64,000 nucleotides of DNA from Bdellovibrio sp. (GTDB taxonomy: Bacteria; Bdellovibrionota; Bdellovibrionia; Bdellovibrionales; Bdellovibrionaceae): NCBI GenBank assembly GCA_013360185.1, contig JABWCO010000001.1, forward strand, positions 2,560 through 66,559. Direction: 5' to 3'. Of this stretch, positions 1,951 to 29,011 are shown one piece after another. Below the pieces are notes generated by a model. That model was given only the letters and a program-made list of their open reading frames with translations. It searched no databases and was not told the DNA's origin. The position numbers were made by a program, and so were the translations under genes. Every line of letters begins with the position of its first letter. Position 1 is the first letter of the stretch.

Positions 1951-2775
1951 ATGGGCTTAAGAATCGCAACGAATACAGCATCTATCGCAGCACAACGTGT
2001 ACTTGGTAAACAGCAAAAACGAGCTGAACATTCGGCGCAGGCATTAGCGTCGGGTTCAAGAATCGTTTCCGCATCCGATGACGCCGCAGGTTTGGCGATC
2101 TCGGAAAACTTCAAAGGACAATTAAAAGGTATATCGGCGGCCCGAAACAACGCCAACAATGCGATTTCATTTTCGCAAGTGGGCGAGGGTGGTTTGGCAG
2201 AGGTCTCGAATATCTTAACGCGTATCCGCGAGCTGGGAGTACAGGCCGCCTCGGATACGGTGGGTGATACGGAACGCGGCTTCCTTAATTTAGAAGCGAA
2301 GCAATTAATCCAAGAGGCGGATCGTATCGCAAAAACAACGACCTTCGGTAACACAAAACTTCTCGACGGCTCTGGTGGTAAATTAGAATTCCACGTGGGC
2401 GCTTATGGTGGAGAAGAAAATATCATCGCCTTCGACTTCGATGCCGATGCGACCGCGGGGTCGCTGGGAATTTCGGGGGTGGGTGTTGGCGATAAATCCG
2501 ACGCACGAAGTGCACTGGAGTCAGTCGACGAGGCCATTCAAAAGGTCGGGGCCTTGCGCGCCAACTTTGGTTCGATGCAAGCGCGCTTAGAATCGACGGT
2601 CAGTAACTTAGACGTGTCGTATGAGAACTTATCGGCCGCGAACTCTCGAATTCGCGACACTGACGTGGCAAAAGAAACGGCAGAGATGGCTTCGGCGAGC
2701 ATCTTGCAAAACACAGCAGTATCAGTGTTAGCGCAGGCCAACCAGTTACCAAACGTAGCATTGAAACTAGTTTAA
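1951..2775 (+). CDS. fliC: Flagellin (short, 274 aa)
   Basis: Flagellin N-terminus MGLRIATNTASIAAQR and motif SGSRIVSASDDAAGLAISE. C-terminal motif LSAANSRIRDTDVAKETAEM...LAQANQLPNVALKLV. GGAGG lies 5 nt before the ATG. Confidence 0.95.
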   Translation: MGLRIATNTASIAAQRVLGKQQKRAEHSAQALASGSRIVSASDDAAGLAISENFKGQLKGISAARNNANNAISFSQVGEGGLAEVSNILTRIRELGVQAASDTVGDTERGFLNLEAKQLIQEADRIAKTTTFGNTKLLDGSGGKLEFHVGAYGGEENIIAFDFDADATAGSLGISGVGVGDKSDARSALESVDEAIQKVGALRANFGSMQARLESTVSNLDVSYENLSAANSRIRDTDVAKETAEMASASILQNTAVSVLAQANQLPNVALKLV

Positions 2776-2890
2776 TAAAATAAATAGAAACAAAAGATAA
2801 AACACTTTTCGTAACATTTACGATATCGATGGGGGCCCGTACTGGGATATGGCCTCCCTCGAGAATGAGGGGTCGCCCACATAAACCCTT

Positions 2891-2944
2891 CGTGTCTTAA
2901 GCCCACCCGGGAGCACCCGCTCCCGGGATTTTTCGGAAGACACG
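2891..2944. terminator. Nested hairpin terminator between fliC copy 1 and the radical-SAM gene
   Basis: Inner stem cccgggagc/gctcccggg (2906-2914 / 2919-2927) is followed by attttt. Outer stem is cgtgtctt/aagacacg (2891-2898 / 2937-2944). Confidence 0.7.
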
Positions 2945-2977
2945 GAATGCTGGGATGTTTATCTGATCTTCAAGATC

Positions 2978-5482
2978 TTAGATAAACAAGTGATGAAAGT
3001 TGTGAGACACAAAAGGTTTGTCTTTCACTTTTCCTAGTTCTTCTAGGAAAAGGGTGTGCTCTGGATGGGATTGCTCGAAGACCGAAATATTAATATGTTC
3101 TTCTTTCGTGTAAGCCCCCGCTGTCCAATGCACAATTTGTCTATAATTAATTTGAATCTTAATTTTTGAATTCGCAAAAATACCACAGATAAGATCGTGA
3201 AAAAGAGCCATCTCTTTGTAGTTATTCTGGCTGACGACCATTGAGAATGTCATTTCCTCAATCGTTTCTTGCTTGCTCAAAAAGGCCATGTTTTCAAGAA
3301 GCTTTTCCCACTTACCACCAAGGCGCGTGACATTTTCATAGGTTTCTTTGGTTCCTGCATCGATACTGATTTCGATATTCTTAATGAAATCTCGGGCCTT
3401 TAGGCTGTTCCACATCTTTTCAGTGAGTAAATTTCCATTAGTCACAATTTTAATGCACTCTAGCTTAGGGTATTTTGTGGCATCAAAGTTGATAAGATAA
3501 TTACGAAACAGGCGCGAATAAAATGGATCGCCGCTTCCAGATATAACCATGTTTTTAAGAGAAGAAGATAAATTATTCTCAATAGAATTAAGAAAATAAG
3601 ATTTAAGCTGGTAATCTGCGGACTCTGCCGGAGTGTTATGAACAATGTCTGGACGGCAGGATGGACATTTTAAATTGCAGCTTCGATCAAAGCCGAACAA
3701 AAGAGTTTCAGGAAGTCCGCTGAACTCTTCGGCTTCTTCAGGGGTCGTAACCGCATACTCCTTTTCGATTTGTTCTTTGATCAGAAAGTTTGCTGGAACT
3801 ACGTCAGTGTTGATCAACTGAGACAAAGAGGGACAGACTTTGTGATCACAATGTCTATAAGAACCGTCCATCACCGAACGTCTGACCGCACGGGCATTTT
3901 TTGAACGCCAGTTTTTCAGAAAGTCCTCTGATTGATCAGGTCTATTAAGTCCCGAAGGGTTGTCTTCACTTGTTCTGATGTTTGACGGGCACCAAGATGG
4001 GCAACAAAGCCACTGACTGTCTTCTTGAATGTCCAAGTAAACAAAGGGTTGCGTGCAGACGTATTTGTTAAGTTTCTTTTTTACATTAGAGTCGATGCAG
4101 AATTGCCAGAACTCTTTGAGCTCCGGAAATGTTTCAAGAAAATGAGTGTTACGTCGACGGTCATGCTCAGTAAAAAATTTATAAAAGTCGATTTGCAGGG
4201 TTTGCTTTGTCTCTGGCTTATCTAACTCGTCTTGATCTGACCGGAACCAGTTTACGATTCGCGCCATTTTATCAATTTCAAATGGCAGAAAGCCTCTTTT
4301 ATATTTCTTCGTTTCAGGCAGATATGTTTCAGGATGCGCAACCATATAATCAAGTTGTGCCTGCATATAACTCACAAATTGAGGTGGCAAAATTTTAATG
4401 GTTTGGTGAGATGGGTATCTTAAAAAGGAAATATCAATAAAAACTGGAACCAAACGATCTGGATTGTACAGATGCTCAGTCGACTTAATTTTGATCACTT
4501 CTTCCAGTAATCTTTCGAAAGAAAGCACACTCAGCGCATTATAGGTCGCCATAATCGTCACGTGAGCCCGCGGAACTTGTTCCAAAAGGTCCCACAAACG
4601 CTTGCGCCAAAGTTCGAAGTTCATGCCATGACGTATGTACTCTGCTTGAGGGCCCCAAGCCTCTGCACTGGTGTATATTTCAAGTTTCTTTACGAATTTG
4701 CCGTCAGAAATTTTTTTCAGCTTCAGCAGAAAGTTCTGCCATAATTCTTCCGGTGGACAAAGATTCGTATTGATTGCGAAGACTAAATTTGGATTTGGAT
4801 TTTCTTGGATCCAATCCAGCACTTTATCCAGATCCTTGTTAAGCAGTGGCTCGCCACCGGTAACGCGAAACGTATGAAGGTTTGGATATAAATCTGGCCA
4901 CCACTTCCAGAAGGCCTCGCGAAATGGATTCTCTTGATTTCCTGGAATCGGAGCAAACTCGGGATCTAAGTAAGGGTGATTCCCTGAAGTAGGATAAGTT
5001 CCAAATTTTTTTATCTCCGCCATCCAGGCCGTGCTTACATCGGGACTGCAGTAAGAACATTTAAAGTTGCAGATATCCCCTAAATTTATTTCGACGTAGT
5101 TAGGGGTGAAGTTGGTATCTAAGGGGTTGTTCTTAATCTTCTGATATTCCGGAAGACTCCAAGAAAAACTGCTCTTGATAATTCGATCTGAAATGTTGTC
5201 ACCCGGTGTATCTTCGACACGCCAGCAATAGTTGCATCCTTCAGGCCGCTCCCCTTTAAGCATGGCCTCGCGCTCTTGAATTTTCTGAGGAGTGTTGTGC
5301 AAGACAGCGGGATTCTCCCTTAGCAAATCTAGGGGAATTTTATGGACTTTGGGATGGTGACAAGAGTGAGTGGTCCCATTTTGTAAGTGAATAGATACCT
5401 GCGTCCACTTGGCGAGGCAAAAGCTCGGTGAAACGGCAGACAAGGCTTCTTTAACTTTATCTAGATGCTCACGATTTGACAT
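2978..5482 (-). CDS. Double radical-SAM domain fusion protein (834 aa)
   Basis: Two CX3CX2C motifs: GDICNFKCSYCSP (nt 5048-5071) and DRSCNLKCPSCRP (nt 3656-3679). Each is followed by a Gly-rich SAM motif (VTGGEPLL; ISGSGDPF). A Cys-rich linker spans aa 476-550. Confidence 0.9.
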   Translation of the reverse strand: MSNREHLDKVKEALSAVSPSFCLAKWTQVSIHLQNGTTHSCHHPKVHKIPLDLLRENPAVLHNTPQKIQEREAMLKGERPEGCNYCWRVEDTPGDNISDRIIKSSFSWSLPEYQKIKNNPLDTNFTPNYVEINLGDICNFKCSYCSPDVSTAWMAEIKKFGTYPTSGNHPYLDPEFAPIPGNQENPFREAFWKWWPDLYPNLHTFRVTGGEPLLNKDLDKVLDWIQENPNPNLVFAINTNLCPPEELWQNFLLKLKKISDGKFVKKLEIYTSAEAWGPQAEYIRHGMNFELWRKRLWDLLEQVPRAHVTIMATYNALSVLSFERLLEEVIKIKSTEHLYNPDRLVPVFIDISFLRYPSHQTIKILPPQFVSYMQAQLDYMVAHPETYLPETKKYKRGFLPFEIDKMARIVNWFRSDQDELDKPETKQTLQIDFYKFFTEHDRRRNTHFLETFPELKEFWQFCIDSNVKKKLNKYVCTQPFVYLDIQEDSQWLCCPSWCPSNIRTSEDNPSGLNRPDQSEDFLKNWRSKNARAVRRSVMDGSYRHCDHKVCPSLSQLINTDVVPANFLIKEQIEKEYAVTTPEEAEEFSGLPETLLFGFDRSCNLKCPSCRPDIVHNTPAESADYQLKSYFLNSIENNLSSSLKNMVISGSGDPFYSRLFRNYLINFDATKYPKLECIKIVTNGNLLTEKMWNSLKARDFIKNIEISIDAGTKETYENVTRLGGKWEKLLENMAFLSKQETIEEMTFSMVVSQNNYKEMALFHDLICGIFANSKIKIQINYRQIVHWTAGAYTKEEHINISVFEQSHPEHTLFLEELGKVKDKPFVSHNFHHLFI

Positions 5483-5738
5483 GGCGACACACTAATACGG
5501 ACCTTCAGAGATTGCGAGAGAGAGATGTCAGCTAAAGCGTAGCGTCATCACTGACTGCATTACTACTGCGAGGGCTCTGCCTTGATTGCGCGTTCTCGCA
5601 TGCAAGCTTTTGGCTTTTGTCTGGTAAGACCTTCCTCGGGGCTGGACTTTAGTTTGGGTTTTTGCGCGTTTTTGGTCTTGTTTTCGAGACCATCGTCCAG
5701 TTTGGGCGCGACCATGGTCCAGAAATGCAGGACGAGAC

Positions 5739-5765
5739 TAAAGCCTTCCAAGACCTCGCCGAAAG
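5739..5765 (+). promoter_or_regulatory. Weak candidate sigma28-type promoter upstream of fliC copy 2
   Basis: TAAAGCCT (5/8), N11, GCCGAAAG (6/8). It lies about 170 nt upstream of the ATG at 5937. Confidence 0.3.
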
Positions 5766-5936
5766 GTATGTCAACAGCAACGATGAAACTAAAGTCGAGG
5801 CTCTCGAGAAACTCAAATGGAGTGACTGCCAAATGAGAATTCGCTTGCAGAGAGACTAGGCCAAGGTGGAGTCACCAACAAGTAACAATTGGTAAGTCTA
5901 AGTAGGTATAAGGCTTGCCGCAAATGGAGGTCCCAA

Positions 5937-6770
5937 ATGGGAATGAGAATTTCAACAAACGTGTCCGCTATCAACGCTCAAAGAACTATGATTACTTCTC
6001 AGCGTTCAATTAGTAAATCAATGGAGCAATTATCTTCTGGCTCCAGAATCAACAAAGCAGCTGACGATGCTGCGGGACTAGCGATCAGTGAAAACTTAAA
6101 ATCGCAAGTTCGTTCATTGAGCCAAGCTGGTCGAAATGCCAACGATGGTATCTCAATGGTGCAAACAGCAGAGGGTGGCTTGAGTGAAATTTCAAACATC
6201 TTAACTCGTATGAGAGAACTAGGTGTGCAAGCATCTTCTGATACAGTAGGTGATACAGAGCGTGGCTTCCTTGATAAAGAGGTTCAACAGTTAAAAGCGG
6301 AAGCGCAACGTATTACGCAAACTACTAAATTCGGTACAACTCGACTTCTCGATGGTTCCGGTGACAAATTCGACTACCAAGTGGGTATCGGAAATGATGC
6401 TGAAGCCGACAGAATTTCCTTTAATGCAGGTGAAACTGACGCAACGGTAAGCAGCTTAGGTATCTCAGGTTTTGACTTCTCGTCAAAAGGTGGCGCCCAA
6501 GAGGCTCTTGAGATGGTGGACAAAGCGCAATCGCAAGTGAATGGATATCGCGCTAACTTAGGTGCCTTGCAAAATCGTTTGCAATCGACAGTTGATAACT
6601 TGGGCGTGCAACATGAAAATATTTCTGCTGCAAACTCTCGAATCCGCGACACTGACATTGCGGCGGCTTCAGCTGAATCAACTCGTAACTCGGTATTGTT
6701 GGCAGCGAATACAAGTGTATTGGCACAAGCGAACTCAATGCCAAATGCAGCCTTGAAACTGATTGGTTAA
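5937..6770 (+). CDS. fliC: Flagellin (short, 277 aa)
   Basis: MGMRISTNVSAINAQR, SGSRINKAADDAAGLAISE and the C-terminal ISAANSRIRDTDIAAASAE...LAQANSMPNAALKLIG. GGAGG at 5926-5930 supports the ATG at 5937 rather than the TTG at 5889. Confidence 0.95.
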   Translation: MGMRISTNVSAINAQRTMITSQRSISKSMEQLSSGSRINKAADDAAGLAISENLKSQVRSLSQAGRNANDGISMVQTAEGGLSEISNILTRMRELGVQASSDTVGDTERGFLDKEVQQLKAEAQRITQTTKFGTTRLLDGSGDKFDYQVGIGNDAEADRISFNAGETDATVSSLGISGFDFSSKGGAQEALEMVDKAQSQVNGYRANLGALQNRLQSTVDNLGVQHENISAANSRIRDTDIAAASAESTRNSVLLAANTSVLAQANSMPNAALKLIG

Positions 6771-6835
6771 TATTTAATTAAGAAATAAAAGTTTGATCTG
6801 AGAGGGCGCCTCCGTGTCCTCTCGGTACCAACCTA

Positions 6836-6860
6836 CCCAGGAAGAGTGTTTCTTCCTGGG
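6836..6860 (+). terminator. 10-bp hairpin downstream of fliC copy 2 (possible terminator or attenuator, no T-run)
   Basis: Stem cccaggaaga (6836-6845) pairs with tcttcctggg (6851-6860), loop gtgtt. No U-tract follows, so this is a weak call. Confidence 0.3.
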
Positions 6861-6908
6861 GTACTACTGGGCAAAGGTCCTGACACGAAACCCGGTTTAA
6901 GGTACGAT

Positions 6909-6936
6909 TCAAGTTTCATTGTGAGAATGCCGATAA
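6909..6936 (+). promoter_or_regulatory. Sigma28 (FliA)-type promoter for flaG-fliD-fliS
   Basis: TCAAGTTT (7/8), N12, GCCGATAA (8/8). The -10 element ends 9 nt before the flaG ATG. Confidence 0.7.
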
Positions 6937-6945
6937 ATCCCTTGT

Positions 6946-9881: not shown

Positions 9882-10937
9882 ATGTTAGATAACCAGATTG
9901 TGCAAAAGTCCAGTGACGTCAACGAACCGCATTTAGGACCTATCGAAGTTCCAGCTCAAGAAAAAATAAAAGTATACTTTGATCCCCAGCAAGCAATTGC
10001 CGACTTCGATGCCGACGTGCAGGTGAGTGAAGCTCCGGCACCGATCGTTGATATTCGTTTGGCTTCTTATCTAAAGAATGCGCGTTTGCTTATGAAGCAT
10101 AGAGAATATTCTTTAGCGCTGAATATCCTCCGTCAGGCTTGCAATCGTGATTCGCGTCATCCTGTGACGTTGGGGCTTTTGGCAACTTGCCTTGAAACGA
10201 CCTCGCGCCATCAAGAGGCATTAATCGCTCGCCGTGCTTTGGTTGATATTGAATACGGGTTTGCAAATCTCTTCAGATACGCCACGGCTCTTTATAAGTT
10301 AGGTAAAGATCAAGAAGCTTTGGATAAGTACTATGAGGCTTTGGCCGTCCTTAAAGAAGAAAATGAGTCCCTTTTTGAAACCTATAAAAACATGGGTAAC
10401 ATCTTTGTACGTCAAGGCGACTTTGACGCTGCTGAAGAGTACTATAATAAAGCCTACACGATGAATCCAAAGTCTGACGTACTGCTTGTCAATTTGGGCA
10501 CTCTTGAGGTGCAACGTAATGATTTTGATAAGTCTTTGTACTGTTTTAGAAACGCCGTTGCCATCAATCCACAAAACGACAAAGCCTGGGTGGGACTGGC
10601 CATGGTTCATAATCACTTTGGTGATAATGAACTGGCGTGGGCGAATATTGAGTCGGCGGTGGATATCAATCCAAAAAATCGAACAGCCGTGCATCTGGCA
10701 GCAAACTGGGGTTTGCGTGACGGCAGAACTCAGAAGTCGATCGAGTTCTTACAAAGCTATTTAGGTTCCGTGGAAGAAGATGAGGACATGTCCTTGGTGC
10801 TTATTAATTTATTCTGCACACTAGGTCATGTTGACAAAGCTCTTCTAGAGATGGAGCGGGTTCTTCTGTGGAATCCACGTCATTCTGAAGTTCGCAGCTT
10901 AAAAAAGAAAATTCTTGATTCGCAAAAGGTGGCGTAA
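9882..10937 (+). CDS. Tetratricopeptide (TPR) repeat protein
   Basis: Repeated 34-aa TPR-like units, for example YKNMGNIFVRQGDFDAAEEYYNKAYTMNPKS, LVNLGTLEVQRNDFDKSLYCFRNAVAINPQN and AWVGLAMVHNHFGDNELAWANIESAVDINPKN. Confidence 0.85.
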   Translation: MLDNQIVQKSSDVNEPHLGPIEVPAQEKIKVYFDPQQAIADFDADVQVSEAPAPIVDIRLASYLKNARLLMKHREYSLALNILRQACNRDSRHPVTLGLLATCLETTSRHQEALIARRALVDIEYGFANLFRYATALYKLGKDQEALDKYYEALAVLKEENESLFETYKNMGNIFVRQGDFDAAEEYYNKAYTMNPKSDVLLVNLGTLEVQRNDFDKSLYCFRNAVAINPQNDKAWVGLAMVHNHFGDNELAWANIESAVDINPKNRTAVHLAANWGLRDGRTQKSIEFLQSYLGSVEEDEDMSLVLINLFCTLGHVDKALLEMERVLLWNPRHSEVRSLKKKILDSQKVA

Positions 10938-10938
10938 G

Positions 10939-11550
10939 ATGTCGATGATTACATTTTCGGAAAATCACGAGGGATCCTTGGTGGCTTTCGAGGCGGGTGC
11001 GGAACTCGCGTCCCTGCGGGACCCGCGCGGTGAAGCTTTGAAGTGGGTCTACTCTTTGGGGGTGATTCCTTCGCAACAAGTGGTAGTCGTGGGCCTGGGT
11101 TCAGGTTTTCACGTAGCTGCTTTGGCAGATCTTGACGAAAATCTAAAGATTACCGTAATTGAATCCCGTGAATCGTTGATTCCAGTTTTTCGTTCGCAGT
11201 TTCCCGAGATTGCCGAGCGTATTGAAGTTGTGATCGCGCAGACCGCTCAGGATATTTTTAAAACGGACGTTTTTCAGGAAGTTATGAGTGGTCAACCTTA
11301 TGTTCTGTCGTGCCGTGAATGCTGGGGACAACAAGGGAATTTATTCTCAGAGTTATTTGCTCATCTTACCGGGCGCTCTGCGGAATCCGTGCGCTATCAT
11401 TTTGACGAGTTTGGCATCAATATGAAAGCCCTTTATTTTCATCCCAAACAAATGCTTTCGGTAAAGGACGTGATTCCTGTTGTCGAAGCTTCGCTGATGG
11501 CAGAAAAGCAAAAGCAAATCTTTAGAGTGCTCGCAGAGCTGGTGAAATAA
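10939..11550 (+). CDS. Rossmann-fold GxGxG protein (SAM-methyltransferase-like or Maf/MptE-like), function unknown
   Basis: VVVVGLGSGFHVAALADL is followed by the acidic beta2 end KITVIESR. The ATG lies immediately after the TPR stop, and the stop overlaps the next ATG (TAATG). Confidence 0.7.
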   Translation: MSMITFSENHEGSLVAFEAGAELASLRDPRGEALKWVYSLGVIPSQQVVVVGLGSGFHVAALADLDENLKITVIESRESLIPVFRSQFPEIAERIEVVIAQTAQDIFKTDVFQEVMSGQPYVLSCRECWGQQGNLFSELFAHLTGRSAESVRYHFDEFGINMKALYFHPKQMLSVKDVIPVVEASLMAEKQKQIFRVLAELVK

Positions 11551-13127
11551 TGAAGATCTTAGTTTTGTCTTTGCTTCGTTTGGGTGACATCATTCAACAA
11601 GAGCCACTGCTGCGTGGTTTGCGTCAGAAAAATCCGCAAGCAGAAATTCATTTGTTGATAAATAAACAATTCGCAAATATCGAACGCATTTTTGAGGGCG
11701 TGGTCGACAAATATATTTATTTTGATCGGACTTCTTTGCAGCAAGGCCTCGGAGAAGCGGCTTACAATATCTTGTGGTCGTATAAGCAGCTTGAAAAGCT
11801 GATTGCTGACTTAGATGGCGAGCACTACGACAAAGCCATTAATTTGACCCATAACAAATTGAGCGCTTATCTTTTGGGAACTTTAGAAATTCCCGAAAAA
11901 CGTGGCCTGTATCAGCAAGACGGGCGTTTTCAGGGATTGAATAATCGGTGGATTCGCTATTTTAATGATCGCTTTTCTGGCAATCAGAAATCCTTATTCC
12001 ATTATGTCGAGTTGTTAGGAAAAGGTTTTGATATTCCTGTGCAAGCGGTCGAGCGAGCACCAGTAAAAAAACGTAGCAAACTTGTTTTGTTGCAGTGTCT
12101 TACCAGCAGCGAGAAAAAAGACTGGGGTCTAGAACGATTTAAACAATTAAAGCGCACTATCGAAATCGCTTTAGTCGATTACGAAGTGTGTATCTTGGGG
12201 GCGTCTTTTGAACGGGATACCCTGTTGTCCGTTTTTTCGGAAGGTGACTTGTTGATTTGTGATTTGGCGGAAGCGCGTAAGCATTTGCATAATGCGGCAT
12301 TGTTGATTACCGGCGACACTAGCATAAAGCACATCGCCGCCCAAGTCGGAACACCAATCGTCGAAATCGTGATCGGCAGCAGCGACGTCTCAAAAACAGC
12401 GGCCTTTGCGGCAAGGTCTATCGCGGTGCAAACGCAAGTGCCTTGTGCACCATGCAGTCATTCTGGCAAGTGCACGCAGGCAAGTCATCTGTGTGCCGAG
12501 GACGTGACGATAGAAAAAGTCTTTGGCGCAGTGTGGGATCAGCTGAGTGGCGAAAAAATCGCTAGCCGAAAAATCGTCAACAGCCTAGAGCGGGCCGTCT
12601 GGACAATCTATTTAGACAAAAACAATGCAGCCGCCCAGCCATTTTATCGGGCCACGGCGGAAGAGTTCTTAACTGAAAATTCTCCGGAATCTTTACAGGC
12701 TTCGCTGCCGGCTTGGAATGAACAAACTGCAATTTATCGTGCCTGGATTGTGAAAGCCCATGCGGCATTGCCGACCCGTGATTTTTTGGCGACGCACAAG
12801 ACCTTTCAAGCGTCGGATATAGCGGAGTTAGTTTTGTTAGCGCAAGACATTCTGCGTTCCAAAAAAGACGAGGCGGGATATTTCCAGTATTTTGTCGAAG
12901 CCTTGCTGTCTCGGTTCAGTCAGCCGGTGCAAATATATGATCGGGTTTTTAAAGCTCTTCAGGATGTCGAAGAGCTGATTAGTGTGCGTGAGGAATTTAC
13001 TCAACATCTGCAAATGCTCTCTCAGGAAGGTGTGTACTATGCAAAAGGAATTGGACAATTATCTATCAGCGGCTTTGAAGAAGTTAGAAAAGGCGTACAG
13101 CGAGATCTTGAGGACGCAGGGATATAG
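11550..13127 (+). CDS. GT9 (heptosyltransferase-family) glycosyltransferase with C-terminal extension, 525 aa
   Basis: N-terminus MKILVLSLLRLGDIIQQEPLLRGLRQKNPQAEIHLL is typical of ADP-heptose heptosyltransferases. GDTSIKHIAAQVGTP is present. It has a four-Cys cluster at aa 299-315 and a helical tail of about 190 aa. Confidence 0.85.
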   Translation: MKILVLSLLRLGDIIQQEPLLRGLRQKNPQAEIHLLINKQFANIERIFEGVVDKYIYFDRTSLQQGLGEAAYNILWSYKQLEKLIADLDGEHYDKAINLTHNKLSAYLLGTLEIPEKRGLYQQDGRFQGLNNRWIRYFNDRFSGNQKSLFHYVELLGKGFDIPVQAVERAPVKKRSKLVLLQCLTSSEKKDWGLERFKQLKRTIEIALVDYEVCILGASFERDTLLSVFSEGDLLICDLAEARKHLHNAALLITGDTSIKHIAAQVGTPIVEIVIGSSDVSKTAAFAARSIAVQTQVPCAPCSHSGKCTQASHLCAEDVTIEKVFGAVWDQLSGEKIASRKIVNSLERAVWTIYLDKNNAAAQPFYRATAEEFLTENSPESLQASLPAWNEQTAIYRAWIVKAHAALPTRDFLATHKTFQASDIAELVLLAQDILRSKKDEAGYFQYFVEALLSRFSQPVQIYDRVFKALQDVEELISVREEFTQHLQMLSQEGVYYAKGIGQLSISGFEEVRKGVQRDLEDAGI

Positions 13128-13183
13128 CCAAGAAGCCGAAAGAGTGCAGCTGTTAAAAGAACTCGTAAAGGAACAAGTGAAAA

Positions 13184-14644
13184 ATGAAAATTCTAGTAAT
13201 TCAACTCGCTAGACTTGGCGATATCTTTATGACTTGGCCTGCGTTGCGTGCCTTGAAGCGCTCCCATCCTCAGGCCGAAATTCACTTATTAACTCGCCCA
13301 CGTTTTGGCGCGGCGGTCGAAGGGTTGACGGCGGTGGATCGTCACATCTCTTTGCCGGTAAGTACTATTCTTGCCCCCTTGGTGCAAGACGAGGCGGATT
13401 TCGATACGTCGTTAGAGCGTTTAAATGAAACGGTCGACATGTTAGTCGCGGAAAATTACGACACCGTGGTGAATCTGACCTTTTCGCCGGTATCGAGCTA
13501 TTTGACTCACGCGGTGAGCGGTTTACACACGACGGTTTTGGGTTATACGCGCTATAACGATGGCACTTTGTGTTTGGCTGATGAGGTCAGTTCTTATTTT
13601 TACGCACAGGTGGGACCTGAACGTGCCAATCGGGTGCATCTGGCTGACATCTTTGCATCAATGCTAAATGTTGAATACATAGAGCAGGATTGGCTCGCTC
13701 CAGTATTGGCGGAACCCAGCTTTGCATTGCCGGATTGTTACATGGCTTTGCATGTCGGCGCCAGTGAACAGCATAAATCTTTAAGTCCTCAAGCTTGGGG
13801 TCGTACGCTGGCATATTTTAACCGTCGCTATCAAGGTTTGCCAATCGTCTTAATCGGGGCTGCGGGCGAGGCCTCGTTAGCCGAAGAAATCATCAAGGCG
13901 GCTCCGCAGGCAGCGATCATTAACATGGTTGGTAAGACCACAGTTTCCGAACTTTTTTCCGTGGTTCAAGAAGCAGAAATTCTTGTAGGTTGTGACAGTG
14001 CGCCGATTCATATGGCGTCATTAACAGACACGCCGACGCTGAATGTATCTGTCGGCAAAGTGAATTACTGGGAAACCGGCCCGAAGGCGACGCTGGGTTT
14101 TATCTATCGCATTGAAAACGAAGAAAAACTTGTGACTGAACGCTTAGGGGAAGTCTTGGCTTTGCTCCTGGAAGGCGAAGTGGCTTCAGAGCTGATCCCA
14201 CGTGCCGCGGGGTTAGTCAGTTATGCGCAGAATGATTTTGGCATAGAGGCTTTCCAGTGGGGCATGGTTCAGGCCCTGTATCTAGGAGGCCCTTATCCCA
14301 TCGCAGACAGAATGGAAATCATTCAAGGGGCTGCGAAGTTGCAAGATATAAATAATTTTGCAATGGAACAAATCGCCTTAATACCTGAAAAGGGTCTTCA
14401 GGCCATCGGACCTTTGTTGGACAGTGCGGAAGAAGTTATTCAAAATATTAGCCGAGTTGTACCGGAATTGAGTCCTCTTATTAACTGGTACCAAGCGGAA
14501 AAAATTCGCATTGGTCCAGGGTCGCTTGAGGAGATCTGTGCGACAGCTTTGAGTATTCACCAACGTTTAGCCCGCCATGTGGAGGCTTACGTTCCTCATG
14601 ACGCCTTAATTCAATCAGAGGAGGCGCTCGATGGAACGCTTTAA
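13184..14644 (+). CDS. GT9 (heptosyltransferase-family) glycosyltransferase paralogue with C-terminal extension, 486 aa
   Basis: N-terminus MKILVIQLARLGDIFMTWPALRALKRSHPQAEIHLL. GCDSAPIHMASLTDTP is present. It has a tail of about 150 aa and no Cys cluster. Confidence 0.85.
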   Translation: MKILVIQLARLGDIFMTWPALRALKRSHPQAEIHLLTRPRFGAAVEGLTAVDRHISLPVSTILAPLVQDEADFDTSLERLNETVDMLVAENYDTVVNLTFSPVSSYLTHAVSGLHTTVLGYTRYNDGTLCLADEVSSYFYAQVGPERANRVHLADIFASMLNVEYIEQDWLAPVLAEPSFALPDCYMALHVGASEQHKSLSPQAWGRTLAYFNRRYQGLPIVLIGAAGEASLAEEIIKAAPQAAIINMVGKTTVSELFSVVQEAEILVGCDSAPIHMASLTDTPTLNVSVGKVNYWETGPKATLGFIYRIENEEKLVTERLGEVLALLLEGEVASELIPRAAGLVSYAQNDFGIEAFQWGMVQALYLGGPYPIADRMEIIQGAAKLQDINNFAMEQIALIPEKGLQAIGPLLDSAEEVIQNISRVVPELSPLINWYQAEKIRIGPGSLEEICATALSIHQRLARHVEAYVPHDALIQSEEALDGTL

Positions 14645-15314
14645 AGTCAGCGGAGAAGATCTGCGCAATTTTTATCAAGACAATATCGAACTTAAAAGAG
14701 TTTTTAGCGATATCGAGCGCGATCTGCGCTCTGAAAACCAAGTGGTGTGTCGTTATATCGTTAACGGCATGGAAGTGGCCGAGTCCGAAGAGGTGCGCTT
14801 TTCCACGGTCAAACTGTCTGACATCGAAACCTTGGAATACGTAACTGAAAACAGTCGCGATATCACCTCGATCGTTTTGAAGGGGTGGATTGAGGCCTTG
14901 CCGGAATTAATTCAACAAACTGAAAATCTTTCGAAGCGTATGCGGGCTCAGGGCTTTTCGGGCTTGTTTAAGGCCATTCACGATTTGGTGCAAAACTGCG
15001 AATATCTGATCGACAGTACGATCACGATTAAAGCGATGATGGGCGATCAATTCCAAGGGTCTGGTCCTGTCGATTGGTACAAAGCCGAAGAGGCCAGCAA
15101 AAAAACTGTGACCGAGGCGTTACGCGCTTTGGAAAATAAGGATTTTATTCTTTTAGCGGATGTCCTAGAGTATGATTTGAACAATGTCTTGCAGATGTGG
15201 TTGGATCACCTGCGAGTCGTGGAGAAGTCGCTTCATGGGGAATACGCCGGGCCTAATATCAATGCCGAACAAGCTGGATCCTATTCTATGGGTAGGAAAC
15301 GTATCGCCAATTAG
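14631..15314 (+). CDS. Hypothetical protein (227 aa)
   Basis: The ATG overlaps the GT9 paralogue stop by 14 nt, which suggests translational coupling. I recognised no motif. Confidence 0.65.
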   Translation: MERFKVSGEDLRNFYQDNIELKRVFSDIERDLRSENQVVCRYIVNGMEVAESEEVRFSTVKLSDIETLEYVTENSRDITSIVLKGWIEALPELIQQTENLSKRMRAQGFSGLFKAIHDLVQNCEYLIDSTITIKAMMGDQFQGSGPVDWYKAEEASKKTVTEALRALENKDFILLADVLEYDLNNVLQMWLDHLRVVEKSLHGEYAGPNINAEQAGSYSMGRKRIAN

Positions 15315-22090: not shown

Positions 22091-23266
22091 TTAAAAGAGA
22101 TTTTTAAAAAAGCTCACGATCCTTGCGAAAAAGCCATCCATCGTTGCGCCGCCGACTGAACTTGGGCTGCGATCCGAGCACTGGTATTTTAGATCCACGG
22201 TGTGGCCAGCAGGGACCGGGGTATCAAACACCAAGCTTGTACCCTCAACTCGGGAAGCCACAGTTATATTTGGCGTGATCGTCACCGTCACCGAATTATT
22301 GTAAGGTGCGCACTCCAGGGGAACTGAACTTAAAGAGTCATTGATTTTATCAAAGAAGAGATTCAAGTTCGTAGAATAGTCGCTGTCGCAAATACTGCCA
22401 ATGCCACCACCCGTTAGATTTGACAGCTCCGCATATTTTACGCCGTAATGGCTTTTTGCTCCGCCGGCGTCTTGAGAGCTTTTACAAGCAGTATCGTTAG
22501 GTTTCACAATGATCGAGTTCACGGTAAAGCGGCGTTCATTGCCGAAAACTTCTTTCACGTAAGCTACAAATACATTGGGTTTGTCTTCGTTTTCTAATGC
22601 TTTAAGTTCTCCGGAATAGAACTGTTGTGAGGCATCGCCGCCCACGCTGCGTTCGTCTTCGTCAGATATGATGATGTACGCAATGGCTGAATCAGGGCGA
22701 TAGCAGCCGCTGTTGCCGCTGTAACGAAGGTCGCCGTTATACACATGTCTATAAGCGGCTTTGATCGCGCGTTCGTCGTCAGAACCAACCCAGCCCGCGT
22801 TGATGTATTCGATGGTATTGGTGAAAATACTAGAAAGGTTGGGTGTTCCCTTTTTTAAGACGATGCCAAGGTCTGAGGAAGGAGTCGAATTTTTTTGCCA
22901 GTAAAAGGACGCGCCCCAAACATACTGATTGGAAGCTGTCGGTAAGGCGCGGGTCGGTGTGGCGCACATTTGCCAGTCGATATTGGAGCTTTGTAATTTC
23001 GTTACAAACCCTGATAAGTTCGCCGCCAATTTCTGGTTATCGGCCAACATTGAATTCGAGTCATCGACGATCAAGACGATATCTAACTTATTGTTCGAAG
23101 CCGTGATCACATTGTTATAATTAACATCACGTAAATTTCCGGCAGGGGTCACCGGGGTCGTATTTTCTTCTGATGAAGCGGAAAATTTCACAGGTCCGCA
23201 AGCACTTAAAGACAGCGCCAGAATTGCAGATGTCCAAAGCATCTTGCCGATAGAATTTCGAAGCAT
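22091..23266 (-). CDS. Lipoprotein with von Willebrand factor A (vWA)-like domain
   Basis: Lipobox LSLSACG. MIDAS-like motif DIVLIVDDSNSM. Confidence 0.8.
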   Translation of the reverse strand: MLRNSIGKMLWTSAILALSLSACGPVKFSASSEENTTPVTPAGNLRDVNYNNVITASNNKLDIVLIVDDSNSMLADNQKLAANLSGFVTKLQSSNIDWQMCATPTRALPTASNQYVWGASFYWQKNSTPSSDLGIVLKKGTPNLSSIFTNTIEYINAGWVGSDDERAIKAAYRHVYNGDLRYSGNSGCYRPDSAIAYIIISDEDERSVGGDASQQFYSGELKALENEDKPNVFVAYVKEVFGNERRFTVNSIIVKPNDTACKSSQDAGGAKSHYGVKYAELSNLTGGGIGSICDSDYSTNLNLFFDKINDSLSSVPLECAPYNNSVTVTITPNITVASRVEGTSLVFDTPVPAGHTVDLKYQCSDRSPSSVGGATMDGFFARIVSFFKNLF

Positions 23267-28513: not shown

Positions 28514-29011
28514 ATGTTTCGTAAATTGGCTCTAGGTCTTGTCGCTTGTGCAATGGTAGTTGGCTGTAAAGGTAAGCAAACTCAATCTGATGAATCAATT
28601 CAGACTATGCCAACAGGCGCTGGTATCGACTCTTCACCACTTAGCTATGATCCAATGGGTTCAGACTCGGGTAAAATCGATGGTCTAGTTACTGTGCACT
28701 TTGGCTACGATAAAGCCAATTTGGATGCTAAATCTAAAAAGGATGTAGCAACGAACGTAGCTTGGATGAAAGCAAATCCAAAAGCGAAAGTTCAAATTGA
28801 AGGTCACTGTGACTCTCGTGGTACTATTGAGTACAACGTAGCATTGGGTGAAAGACGTGCGAATGCAGTTAAAGCCTACATGGTAAGCTCTGGTATTTCT
28901 GCAGATCGTTTAAGCGTTATCAGCTACGGTAAAGAAAAACCTCTTGAGACAGGTGATTCTGAGTCTGCATGGGCAAAAAACCGCCGTGCAAACTTTGTCC
29001 CTGCTCAATAA
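28514..29011 (+). CDS. pal: Peptidoglycan-associated lipoprotein Pal (OmpA family)
   Basis: Lipobox VVGCKG. OmpA-C-like block VHFGYDKANLD...IEGHCDSRGTIEYNVALGERRANAVKAYM. Confidence 0.9.
   Translation: MFRKLALGLVACAMVVGCKGKQTQSDESIQTMPTGAGIDSSPLSYDPMGSDSGKIDGLVTVHFGYDKANLDAKSKKDVATNVAWMKANPKAKVQIEGHCDSRGTIEYNVALGERRANAVKAYMVSSGISADRLSVISYGKEKPLETGDSESAWAKNRRANFVPAQ

Follow-up and report, generated by a model that had tools for sequence, protein, structure and literature searches.

The window analysed here is a stretch of 64,000 nucleotides from a Bdellovibrio sp. genome (GenBank assembly GCA_013360185.1, contig JABWCO010000001.1, positions 2,560 to 66,559), and the gene under study is its minus-strand open reading frame (ORF) at 2978..5482, which is intact, begins with ATG and codes for 834 amino acids (aa). 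Both halves of the predicted protein, hereafter called module A (N-terminal) and module B (C-terminal), are radical S-adenosylmethionine (SAM) modules, and they belong to two distinct families. We consider it probable (about 60 %) that the gene encodes two sugar-tailoring radical SAM enzymes in a single polypeptide, fused from a neighbouring pair of A and B genes, and that it lies between two flagellin genes as an insertion rather than through a conserved flagellar association. The initial annotation, made from the letters alone, had described an 834-codon ORF antisense to two flanking flagellin genes, with two CX3CX2C motifs and the motifs VTGGEPLL and ISGSGDPF; all of these were confirmed at the positions listed below, and both flanking genes have Flagellin_N and Flagellin_C matches. 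Among the 58 long ORFs found in six frames of the window, the CX3CX2C motif occurs in this ORF only, in two copies. The features of the gene are as follows.

2978..5482, minus strand: two-module radical SAM fusion gene, from the ORF listing of the window; full-length orthologues P0002 and P0003 are 79 % and 76 % identical, and nonsynonymous divergence (dN) from the orthologue at locus L001 is 0.16
4085..5482, minus strand: module A, aa 1-466, NF033640 N_Twi_rSAM family (365.5 bits; AlphaFold2 (AF2) model with a predicted local distance difference test score (pLDDT) of 91.7)
5225..5419, minus strand: N-terminal 4-Cys (twitch-type) domain of module A, C22, C41, C83 and C86, invariant in 52 family-A sequences
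nt 5048-5071, minus strand: CX3CX2C motif of module A, C138/C142/C145, LGDICNFKCSYCSPD, invariant in family A
4841..4864, minus strand: SAM-binding 'GGE' motif of module A, VTGGEPLL, aa 207-214, with T208, G209, G210, E211 and P212 invariant
2981..4084, minus strand: module B, aa 467-834, of a radical SAM family that is normally standalone, recognised from homologues, its own hidden Markov model (HMM), an AF2 model and PF04055
3833..4057, minus strand: N-terminal Cys domain of module B, C476, C493, C494, C545 and C550, conserved in 61 standalone family-B proteins
nt 3656-3679, minus strand: CX3CX2C motif of module B, C602/C606/C609 (C130/C134/C137 in family-B numbering), FDRSCNLKCPSCRPD, invariant
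3521..3544, minus strand: SAM-binding motif of module B, ISGSGDPF, aa 647-654, with G-S-G-D-P invariant

Over its whole length the protein matches PF04055 in two stretches with 50.8 bits. Run separately against HMMs, as the initial annotation had advised, each half passed one model: the C half PF04055 itself, with 30.3 bits just over the gathering threshold of 29.5 bits, and the N half, which was below that threshold with 25.1 bits, NF033640 ("twitch domain-containing radical SAM protein"), a model for a radical SAM subfamily with a curated cutoff of 170 bits. The NF033640 match extends over aa 18-459 and covers the complete profile (1-398/398). Module A is a full-length member of this family, with the N-terminal 4-Cys domain, the CX3CX2C and the GGE motifs, and differs from typical members, which are standalone proteins of about 465 aa, in being joined to a different radical SAM family. 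The four N-terminal Cys residues, the three Cys residues of the core and TGGEP are invariant in the 52 aligned sequences. The family has thousands of standalone members and is common in metagenome-assembled genomes (MAGs) of Bdellovibrionota; the GTDB genome closest for module A is a Pseudobdellovibrionaceae MAG (L009, 64 % identity). The AF2 model of module A has a predicted template modelling score (pTM) of 0.90.

A database search with aa 473-834 returned 644 homologues of module B, most of them 350-385 aa long and thus of the size of a standalone protein of about 365 aa. The best standalone family-B matches were 50-59 % identical at 99-100 % query coverage, including the Cys-rich stretch with CTQPF, WLCCPSWCP and HCDHKVCP (all within aa 476-551 of the 834-aa protein), and a purpose-built family-B HMM scored 585 bits over aa 467-833. 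In the alignment of 61 standalone family-B proteins C493, C494, C545, C550, C602/C606/C609 and SGSGDP were invariant, and C476 was conserved in at least 90 %. Since the Cys-rich stretch is conserved in standalone proteins, the segment which the initial annotation had taken for a Cys-rich linker (aa 476-550) is the N-terminal Cys domain of the second enzyme family; the HMM boundaries place the true A-B linker at about 5-10 residues. Module B reached no specific NCBIfam cutoff, and with 45.3 bits against NF033640 (cutoff 170) it is not a member of that family. Family B had no tblastn match in 50,697 cultured phage records, and its matches in PHROGs were to generic radical SAM families only; on IMG/VR viral contigs, 457 stretches encode a relative. 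The AF2 model of module B had a pLDDT of 91.5 and a pTM of 0.90, and its core was matched by Foldseek to viperin, DesII, BlsE, NifB, SkfB and MoaA with a probability of 1.0, E-values down to 3.5e-8 and template modelling (TM) scores of about 0.45-0.55, in agreement with the partial (beta/alpha)6 TIM-barrel fold of the radical SAM superfamily, while a sequence search against solved structures gave marginal MoaA and viperin matches only. For each module, one [4Fe-4S] cluster that cleaves SAM and one auxiliary Fe-S cluster are predicted, which would give at most four clusters in total.

When module A was compared with module B by BLASTP, the CX3CX2C motif was the sole match, and hhalign gave a probability of 12 %, aligning a CxxC of A with a Cx4C of B and then the cores. 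A tandem internal duplication was rejected on these two results, in favour of a fusion between two distinct families. The modules have a common layout, in which an N-terminal Cys domain is followed by the CX3CX2C core. The proposal that two formerly separate radical SAM enzymes had been joined was borne out, as each half is a widespread separate family elsewhere. At the A-B junction the window has an A6 run only (GTAAAAAAGAAAC, about nt 4066-4078), where the orthologue at L002 has A10.

Full-length A-B fusions were found in P0002 and in P0003/L001. In a HMMER search of 1.84 billion representatives (50 % identity), P0003 was the sole match to aa 1-833, and the remaining top matches covered either A by itself, two A modules in tandem or only B, so that the A-B fusion is limited to a single small clade. 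The orthologue at L002, which reads as two proteins of 483 aa and 317 aa, was rejected as a true split, the interruption being a 1-nt frameshift in the A10 run at the module junction. Three causes of this frameshift (L002:11395-11425) are conceivable: a mistake in the assembly, a real return of the fusion to two genes, or a switch that works by slippage. Proteins with two or even three A modules also occur (A-A and A-A-A; P0007, P0010). Several Bdellovibrionota loci (L018:3077-15073, L023:9935-20225, L026, L061) have up to 7-8 consecutive N_Twi_rSAM-like paralogues, many of them highly divergent (50-120 bits against the family-A HMM).

The gene neighbourhoods of the two families point to nucleotide-sugar metabolism. 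In each of the three independent metagenome contexts of standalone B (L003/L004, L005/L006 and L007/L008), A paralogues were located no more than a few kb away. In L003/L004 three consecutive N_Twi_rSAM genes lie directly 5' of B, the start of B overlaps the end of the preceding gene, and the A-then-B gene order is the module order of the fusion; L003 is a 353-kb contig, with B within a nucleotide-sugar module. The standalone-B clusters hold RmlC-like dTDP-sugar isomerases, several nucleoside diphosphate (NDP)-sugar epimerase/dehydratases, a split thiamine pyrophosphate-dependent enzyme (E1_dh + Transket_pyr), UDP-glucose dehydrogenase and a cytidylyltransferase-cupin protein, and additionally 2-oxoglutarate (2OG)-Fe oxygenases and glycosyltransferases (GT) of family GT7. 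At 42 non-redundant viral B loci, a strong A gene was present within 10 kb in 10 and any A-like gene in 15. For the 148 proteins whose genes lie at most about 1.2 kb from a viral B gene, the commonest annotations were NDP-sugar epimerase/dehydratase (9), 2OG-Fe oxygenase (8) and Transket_pyr (8) with E1_dh (3), followed by cytidylyltransferase (5), adenylylsulfate (APS) kinase (4), carbamoyltransferase (3) and RmlC-like isomerase (3). The viral B backbones (IMG/VR, L086-L165) carry the T4-like markers gp32, RecA/UvsX-like protein, DNA ligase, thymidylate synthase (ThyA) and QueC.

The bacterial loci of family A contain, beside housekeeping genes, recurrent genes for GT2 (8 loci), epimerases (8), RmlC-like proteins (4), GT7 with a lectin domain (4) and carbamoyltransferase (4). 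P0012, a standalone A homologue, belongs to a cluster of genes for GT2, a DegT aminotransferase, an epimerase, UDP-glucose dehydrogenase and a SPASM radical SAM protein, and the fused orthologue P0002 has genes for SIS, carbamoyltransferase and GT2 as neighbours. Gene context and fold together suggest that A and B take part in the tailoring of nucleotide sugars or glycans. The fusion would most likely derive from an adjacent A-then-B gene pair in a nucleotide-sugar cluster of a large aquatic phage or of a bacterium, and, just as FbiC (discussed below) joins CofG and CofH, it would unite two radical reactions that act in succession on a nucleotide-linked sugar or on the glycan made from it. Candidate steps are H-abstraction-driven oxidation, epimerisation, dehydration or C-C chemistry.

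Radical SAM enzymes acting on sugars are known. DesII is a TDP-sugar deaminase, BlsE a decarboxylase and BtrN a twitch-domain dehydrogenase, and AprD4 is a further example; the substrates of DesII and BlsE are sugar nucleotides or nucleosides, and BtrN combines a radical SAM core with an auxiliary-cluster domain. The modelled core of module B superposes on both DesII and BlsE, modules A and B resemble BtrN in that a putative auxiliary-cluster domain accompanies the radical SAM core, and the gene context of A and B is one of nucleotide-sugar tailoring. They differ from these enzymes in that identity is only 12-19 % (TM about 0.35-0.47) and that the auxiliary Cys domain lies before the barrel and not after it.

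The best structural match of the module B core was viperin, a ddhNTP synthase (E 3.5e-8, template-normalised TM score (TMt) about 0.55), suggesting the possibility that B modifies a free nucleotide, as viperin and MoaA do, or a precursor for phage-type DNA hypermodification. The top structural matches were viperins with bound CTP or UTP, weak NCBIfam matches to prokaryotic viperin and MoaA were seen, and family B is abundant on phage contigs which also carry QueC, PTPS and thymidylate synthase. However, the viperin models NF038283 and TIGR04278 gave 30-35 bits (cutoff 180) and 21-25 bits (cutoff 450), so that the resemblance is structural only, and DesII and BlsE match B nearly as well as the viperins do. 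Viperins have no auxiliary, N-terminal Cys domain. The genes within about 1.2 kb of B encode mostly NDP-sugar enzymes, and the context consists of sugar genes, not defence genes; we regard a nucleotide or nucleic acid substrate as improbable.

With the SPASM and twitch enzymes (maturases of peptides that are made on ribosomes and modified after translation (RiPPs), anaerobic sulfatase-maturating enzyme (anSME), MoaA) the two modules share an extra conserved Cys domain and weak profile matches to many members. In those enzymes the SPASM or twitch domain follows the barrel (PMC9477430), whereas the Cys domains of A and B are N-terminal, no conserved Cys follows either core and PF13186 was not matched. 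The modules might still crosslink or epimerise a ribosomal peptide whose gene lies elsewhere: B had sub-threshold NCBIfam matches to the SPASM maturases WgkB, StsB, GggB and DynA, the best, weak, Foldseek match of module A was SuiB, the arrays of up to 7-8 family-A paralogues in Bdellovibrionota would suit such a role, and 12 loci have ABC-transporter ATPase neighbours. The maturase matches are, however, all far under the family cutoffs, neither module has a C-terminal SPASM/twitch or RiPP recognition element (RRE)-like domain, no precursor gene was found in the 2.7-kb insertion carrying the gene (described below), and the recurrent annotated neighbours are sugar enzymes rather than peptidases or precursors. 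A peptide maturase is thus an unlikely interpretation.

As a fusion of two radical SAM modules, the protein resembles FbiC (FO synthase), in which CofG and CofH form one polypeptide, while elsewhere they are encoded by separate co-operating genes (PMC8498797). A and B also occur elsewhere as separate neighbouring genes, at L003-L008 and at the 15 of 42 viral B loci with an A-like gene. The resemblance is one of analogy, not homology, since no CofG, CofH or FbiC model was among the NCBIfam matches; in addition, each module here has an N-terminal Cys domain, and the A-B fusion is found in one small clade, whereas FbiC is widespread.

The position of the gene was compared with related flagellar loci. 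The features surrounding it in the window are:

1951..2775, plus strand: fliC1 flagellin, flanking gene outside the system, with Flagellin_N/C matches and a 90 % identical orthologue in L082
2906..2927, plus strand: fliC1 intrinsic terminator, from a terminator scan, conserved in L082 and L072 and just outside the insertion
2935..5620, no strand assigned: lineage-specific insertion of about 2.7 kb in the fliC1-fliC2 spacer, comprising the gene and about 140 nt upstream of it, from alignment to empty spacers
5738..5764, plus strand: sigma-28-type promoter-like site for fliC2, CTAAAG-N14-GCCGAAA, which occurs once in the window where chance would give 0.03, is shared by L082 and L072 and lies just outside the insertion
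5943..6770, plus strand: fliC2 flagellin, flanking gene, with Flagellin_N/C matches and a 94 % identical orthologue in L082

The site at 5738..5764 would be the fliC2 promoter, as suggested by the FliA consensus, and the true start of fliC2 is probably ATG 5943, which follows GGAGG, and not TTG 5889 of the ORF list. The genes flaG, fliD, fliS, a fliT-like gene, a tetratricopeptide repeat (TPR) protein gene and two GT9-like genes are located 3' of fliC2. A metagenome scan with FliD of the window identified 14 syntenic loci (FliD identity 62-84 %), which are collinear from flaG, fliD and fliS through the TPR and GT9 genes to a histidine kinase gene, rsmD and coaD. In the six syntenic relatives that have both fliC genes, the spacer between them was occupied as follows.

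L082: about 0.5-0.65 kb, no gene (FliD 84 %, FliC 90-94 % identity)
L072: about 0.5-0.65 kb, no gene (FliD 81 %)
L075: about 0.5-0.65 kb, no gene (FliD 69 %)
L074: 7137-7859, minus-strand gene of 240 aa with a weak IS200-type Y1 transposase match (FliD 78 %)
L083: 2793-3491, minus-strand gene of 232 aa with an IS200-type Y1 transposase match (FliD 76 %)
L076: alpha/beta hydrolase (FliD 67 %)

The radical SAM gene was missing from this slot in all six. DNA homology with the empty sites of L082 and L072 extends through the fliC1 stop codon and terminator to about 2935 and resumes from about 5620, from which it follows that the gene and about 140 nt upstream of it form the 2.7-kb insertion. The gene is a recent insertion, as shown by synteny rather than by GC content, and the initial suggestion that it might be cargo between duplicated fliC copies agrees with the empty or differently occupied spacers of the relatives. 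Target-site duplications, flanking direct repeats and terminal inverted repeats were looked for around the insert and none was found. The fliC2-flaG spacer (6771-6945 in the window) also carries cargo in relatives, including GSDH, bestrophin-like, DJ-1/PfpI and FAD/Rieske oxidoreductase genes, and, like the fliC1-fliC2 spacer (2776-5942 in the window), it is a hot spot for variable cargo amid collinear flagellar genes, with further examples at L076:2519-4222 and L082:6870-9340.

The initial annotation had also suggested that the protein acts on flagellin or on a sugar or other modifying group destined for it. Such an enzyme, modifying flagellin or its glycan, would account for a gene directly between two flagellin genes. 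The block which follows fliS and fliT in the window (9882-15314), encoding the TPR protein, a 211-aa protein of unknown function, two long GT9 (heptosyltransferase-like) proteins and a 227-aa protein of unknown function, may be a filament- or sheath-associated glycosylation system, and at one bacterial family-A locus (L036) a flagellin gene lies about 7 kb away, with a GT2 gene between. The closest relatives (FliD 81-84 %, FliC 83-94 % identity), however, keep the flagellar and GT9 locus without the radical SAM gene, the TPR/211-aa/GT9/GT9/227-aa block being kept in all syntenic relatives with or without it, and unrelated cargo occupies the slot in others. Neither the fused orthologues (P0002, L001 and L002) nor the standalone A homologues nearest to module A have a flagellin gene next to them. 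The initial annotation had proposed to follow orthologues in relatives; those in P0002 and P0003/L001 are fused and lie away from fliC. L036 is the only one of 63 bacterial (GTDB) loci with a flagellin gene within 10 kb, and none of the 42 viral loci has one, giving 1 of 105 other loci of A or B overall. The empty or otherwise occupied slots and the flagellin-free loci elsewhere leave a dedicated flagellin role unsupported, and we consider it quite improbable; of the sugar suggestion, the tailoring context stood and the flagellin destination did not.

The composition of the gene is only mildly atypical, and in codon usage it conforms to the host. Its GC content is 41.6 %, whereas 49 genes of the window average 45.7 % (sd 2.6; z = -1.5); GC at third codon positions (GC3) deviates less (z = -0.7), and in codon-usage distance the gene ranks 44 of 49, i.e. 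among the most typical. The compositionally foreign insert that had been proposed from single lines is thus weakly borne out by the composition profile; the 57 % line quoted for comparison came from fliC1, which is a GC-rich outlier (51.3 %). A donor of similar composition would fit, another member of Bdellovibrionota being plausible. Compared with the 76 % identical L001 orthologue, dN was 0.12 for module A, 0.19 for the Cys domain of B and 0.21 for the core of B, with synonymous sites saturated, which indicates that both modules are under purifying selection.

Several observations weigh against a sugar-tailoring fusion enzyme. The Foldseek resemblance of module B does not go beyond the common radical SAM core (TM about 0.45-0.55), and module A has no close solved relative, its best matches, to SuiB (E 5e-4) and viperin, being weak (TMt up to 0.5), as was that to AprD4. 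The co-occurrence of A and B on viral contigs is partial, with a strong A gene at only 10 of 42 loci, many Bdellovibrionota family-A loci lie among housekeeping genes, and no recognisable sugar genes were found near the fused orthologue at L001. A tblastn search of the 64-kb window with 16 of the usual sugar-partner proteins found no homologue, and upstream of the gene neither a sigma-70-like promoter nor a clear Shine-Dalgarno site was found, which bears on expression. Literature searches covering N-terminal twitch enzymes, radical SAM proteins in flagellin glycosylation, and phage radical SAM proteins and nucleotide sugars turned up no paper on family A or B, so the substrate is read from the gene neighbourhood only.

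The gene could also be a horizontally acquired passenger that is unexpressed or decaying, as might be expected from its recent insertion, the lack of a promoter-like or strong ribosome-binding site upstream and of partner genes in the window, and the frameshift in the A10 run of L002. Its 834 codons are nevertheless intact, every invariant family residue is kept in both modules, dN is low against the 76 % identical orthologue, and codon usage is typical of the host, all of which make an inert gene most improbable. The gene is best described as a passenger, carried in a slot of changing content that separates the fliC paralogues, and its annotation as a flagellin-modification gene is unwarranted.

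Two further ORFs of the window deserve mention. In codon usage, the 165-aa ORF at 28514-29011 is by far the most extreme of the window (distance 0.63; GC3 0.30 compared with a mean of 0.46), which could reflect a foreign origin, a very high level of expression or an ORF that is no real gene. The 391-aa protein encoded on the minus strand at 22091-23266 has a sub-threshold match to NF052240, 'MIDAS family adhesin', the short name of which contains 'Bdello', in keeping with a Bdellovibrio-like source for the window.

Double radical SAM proteins are already known from FbiC, and N-terminal twitch enzymes have been catalogued as NF033640. What is new is the A-B architecture, limited to one clade, the recognition of B as a separate, largely phage-borne family with its own N-terminal Cys domain, and the association of both families, by their gene context, with nucleotide-sugar tailoring. 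Tentatively, and with the odds somewhat against it, A and B may form an obligate pair for an undescribed two-step radical transformation of a nucleotide sugar, spread by aquatic T4-like phages and predatory Bdellovibrionota. If this were true, the rare fusion would be a 'Rosetta stone' for their consecutive action and a single-polypeptide handle on the chemistry. The fusion links family A, with its thousands of members, functionally to family B, with hundreds of phage-borne members, and offers one construct for Fe-S and activity work. The placement of these genes in phage nucleotide-sugar clusters suggests unexplored radical sugar chemistry, which could affect virion or host surface glycans.

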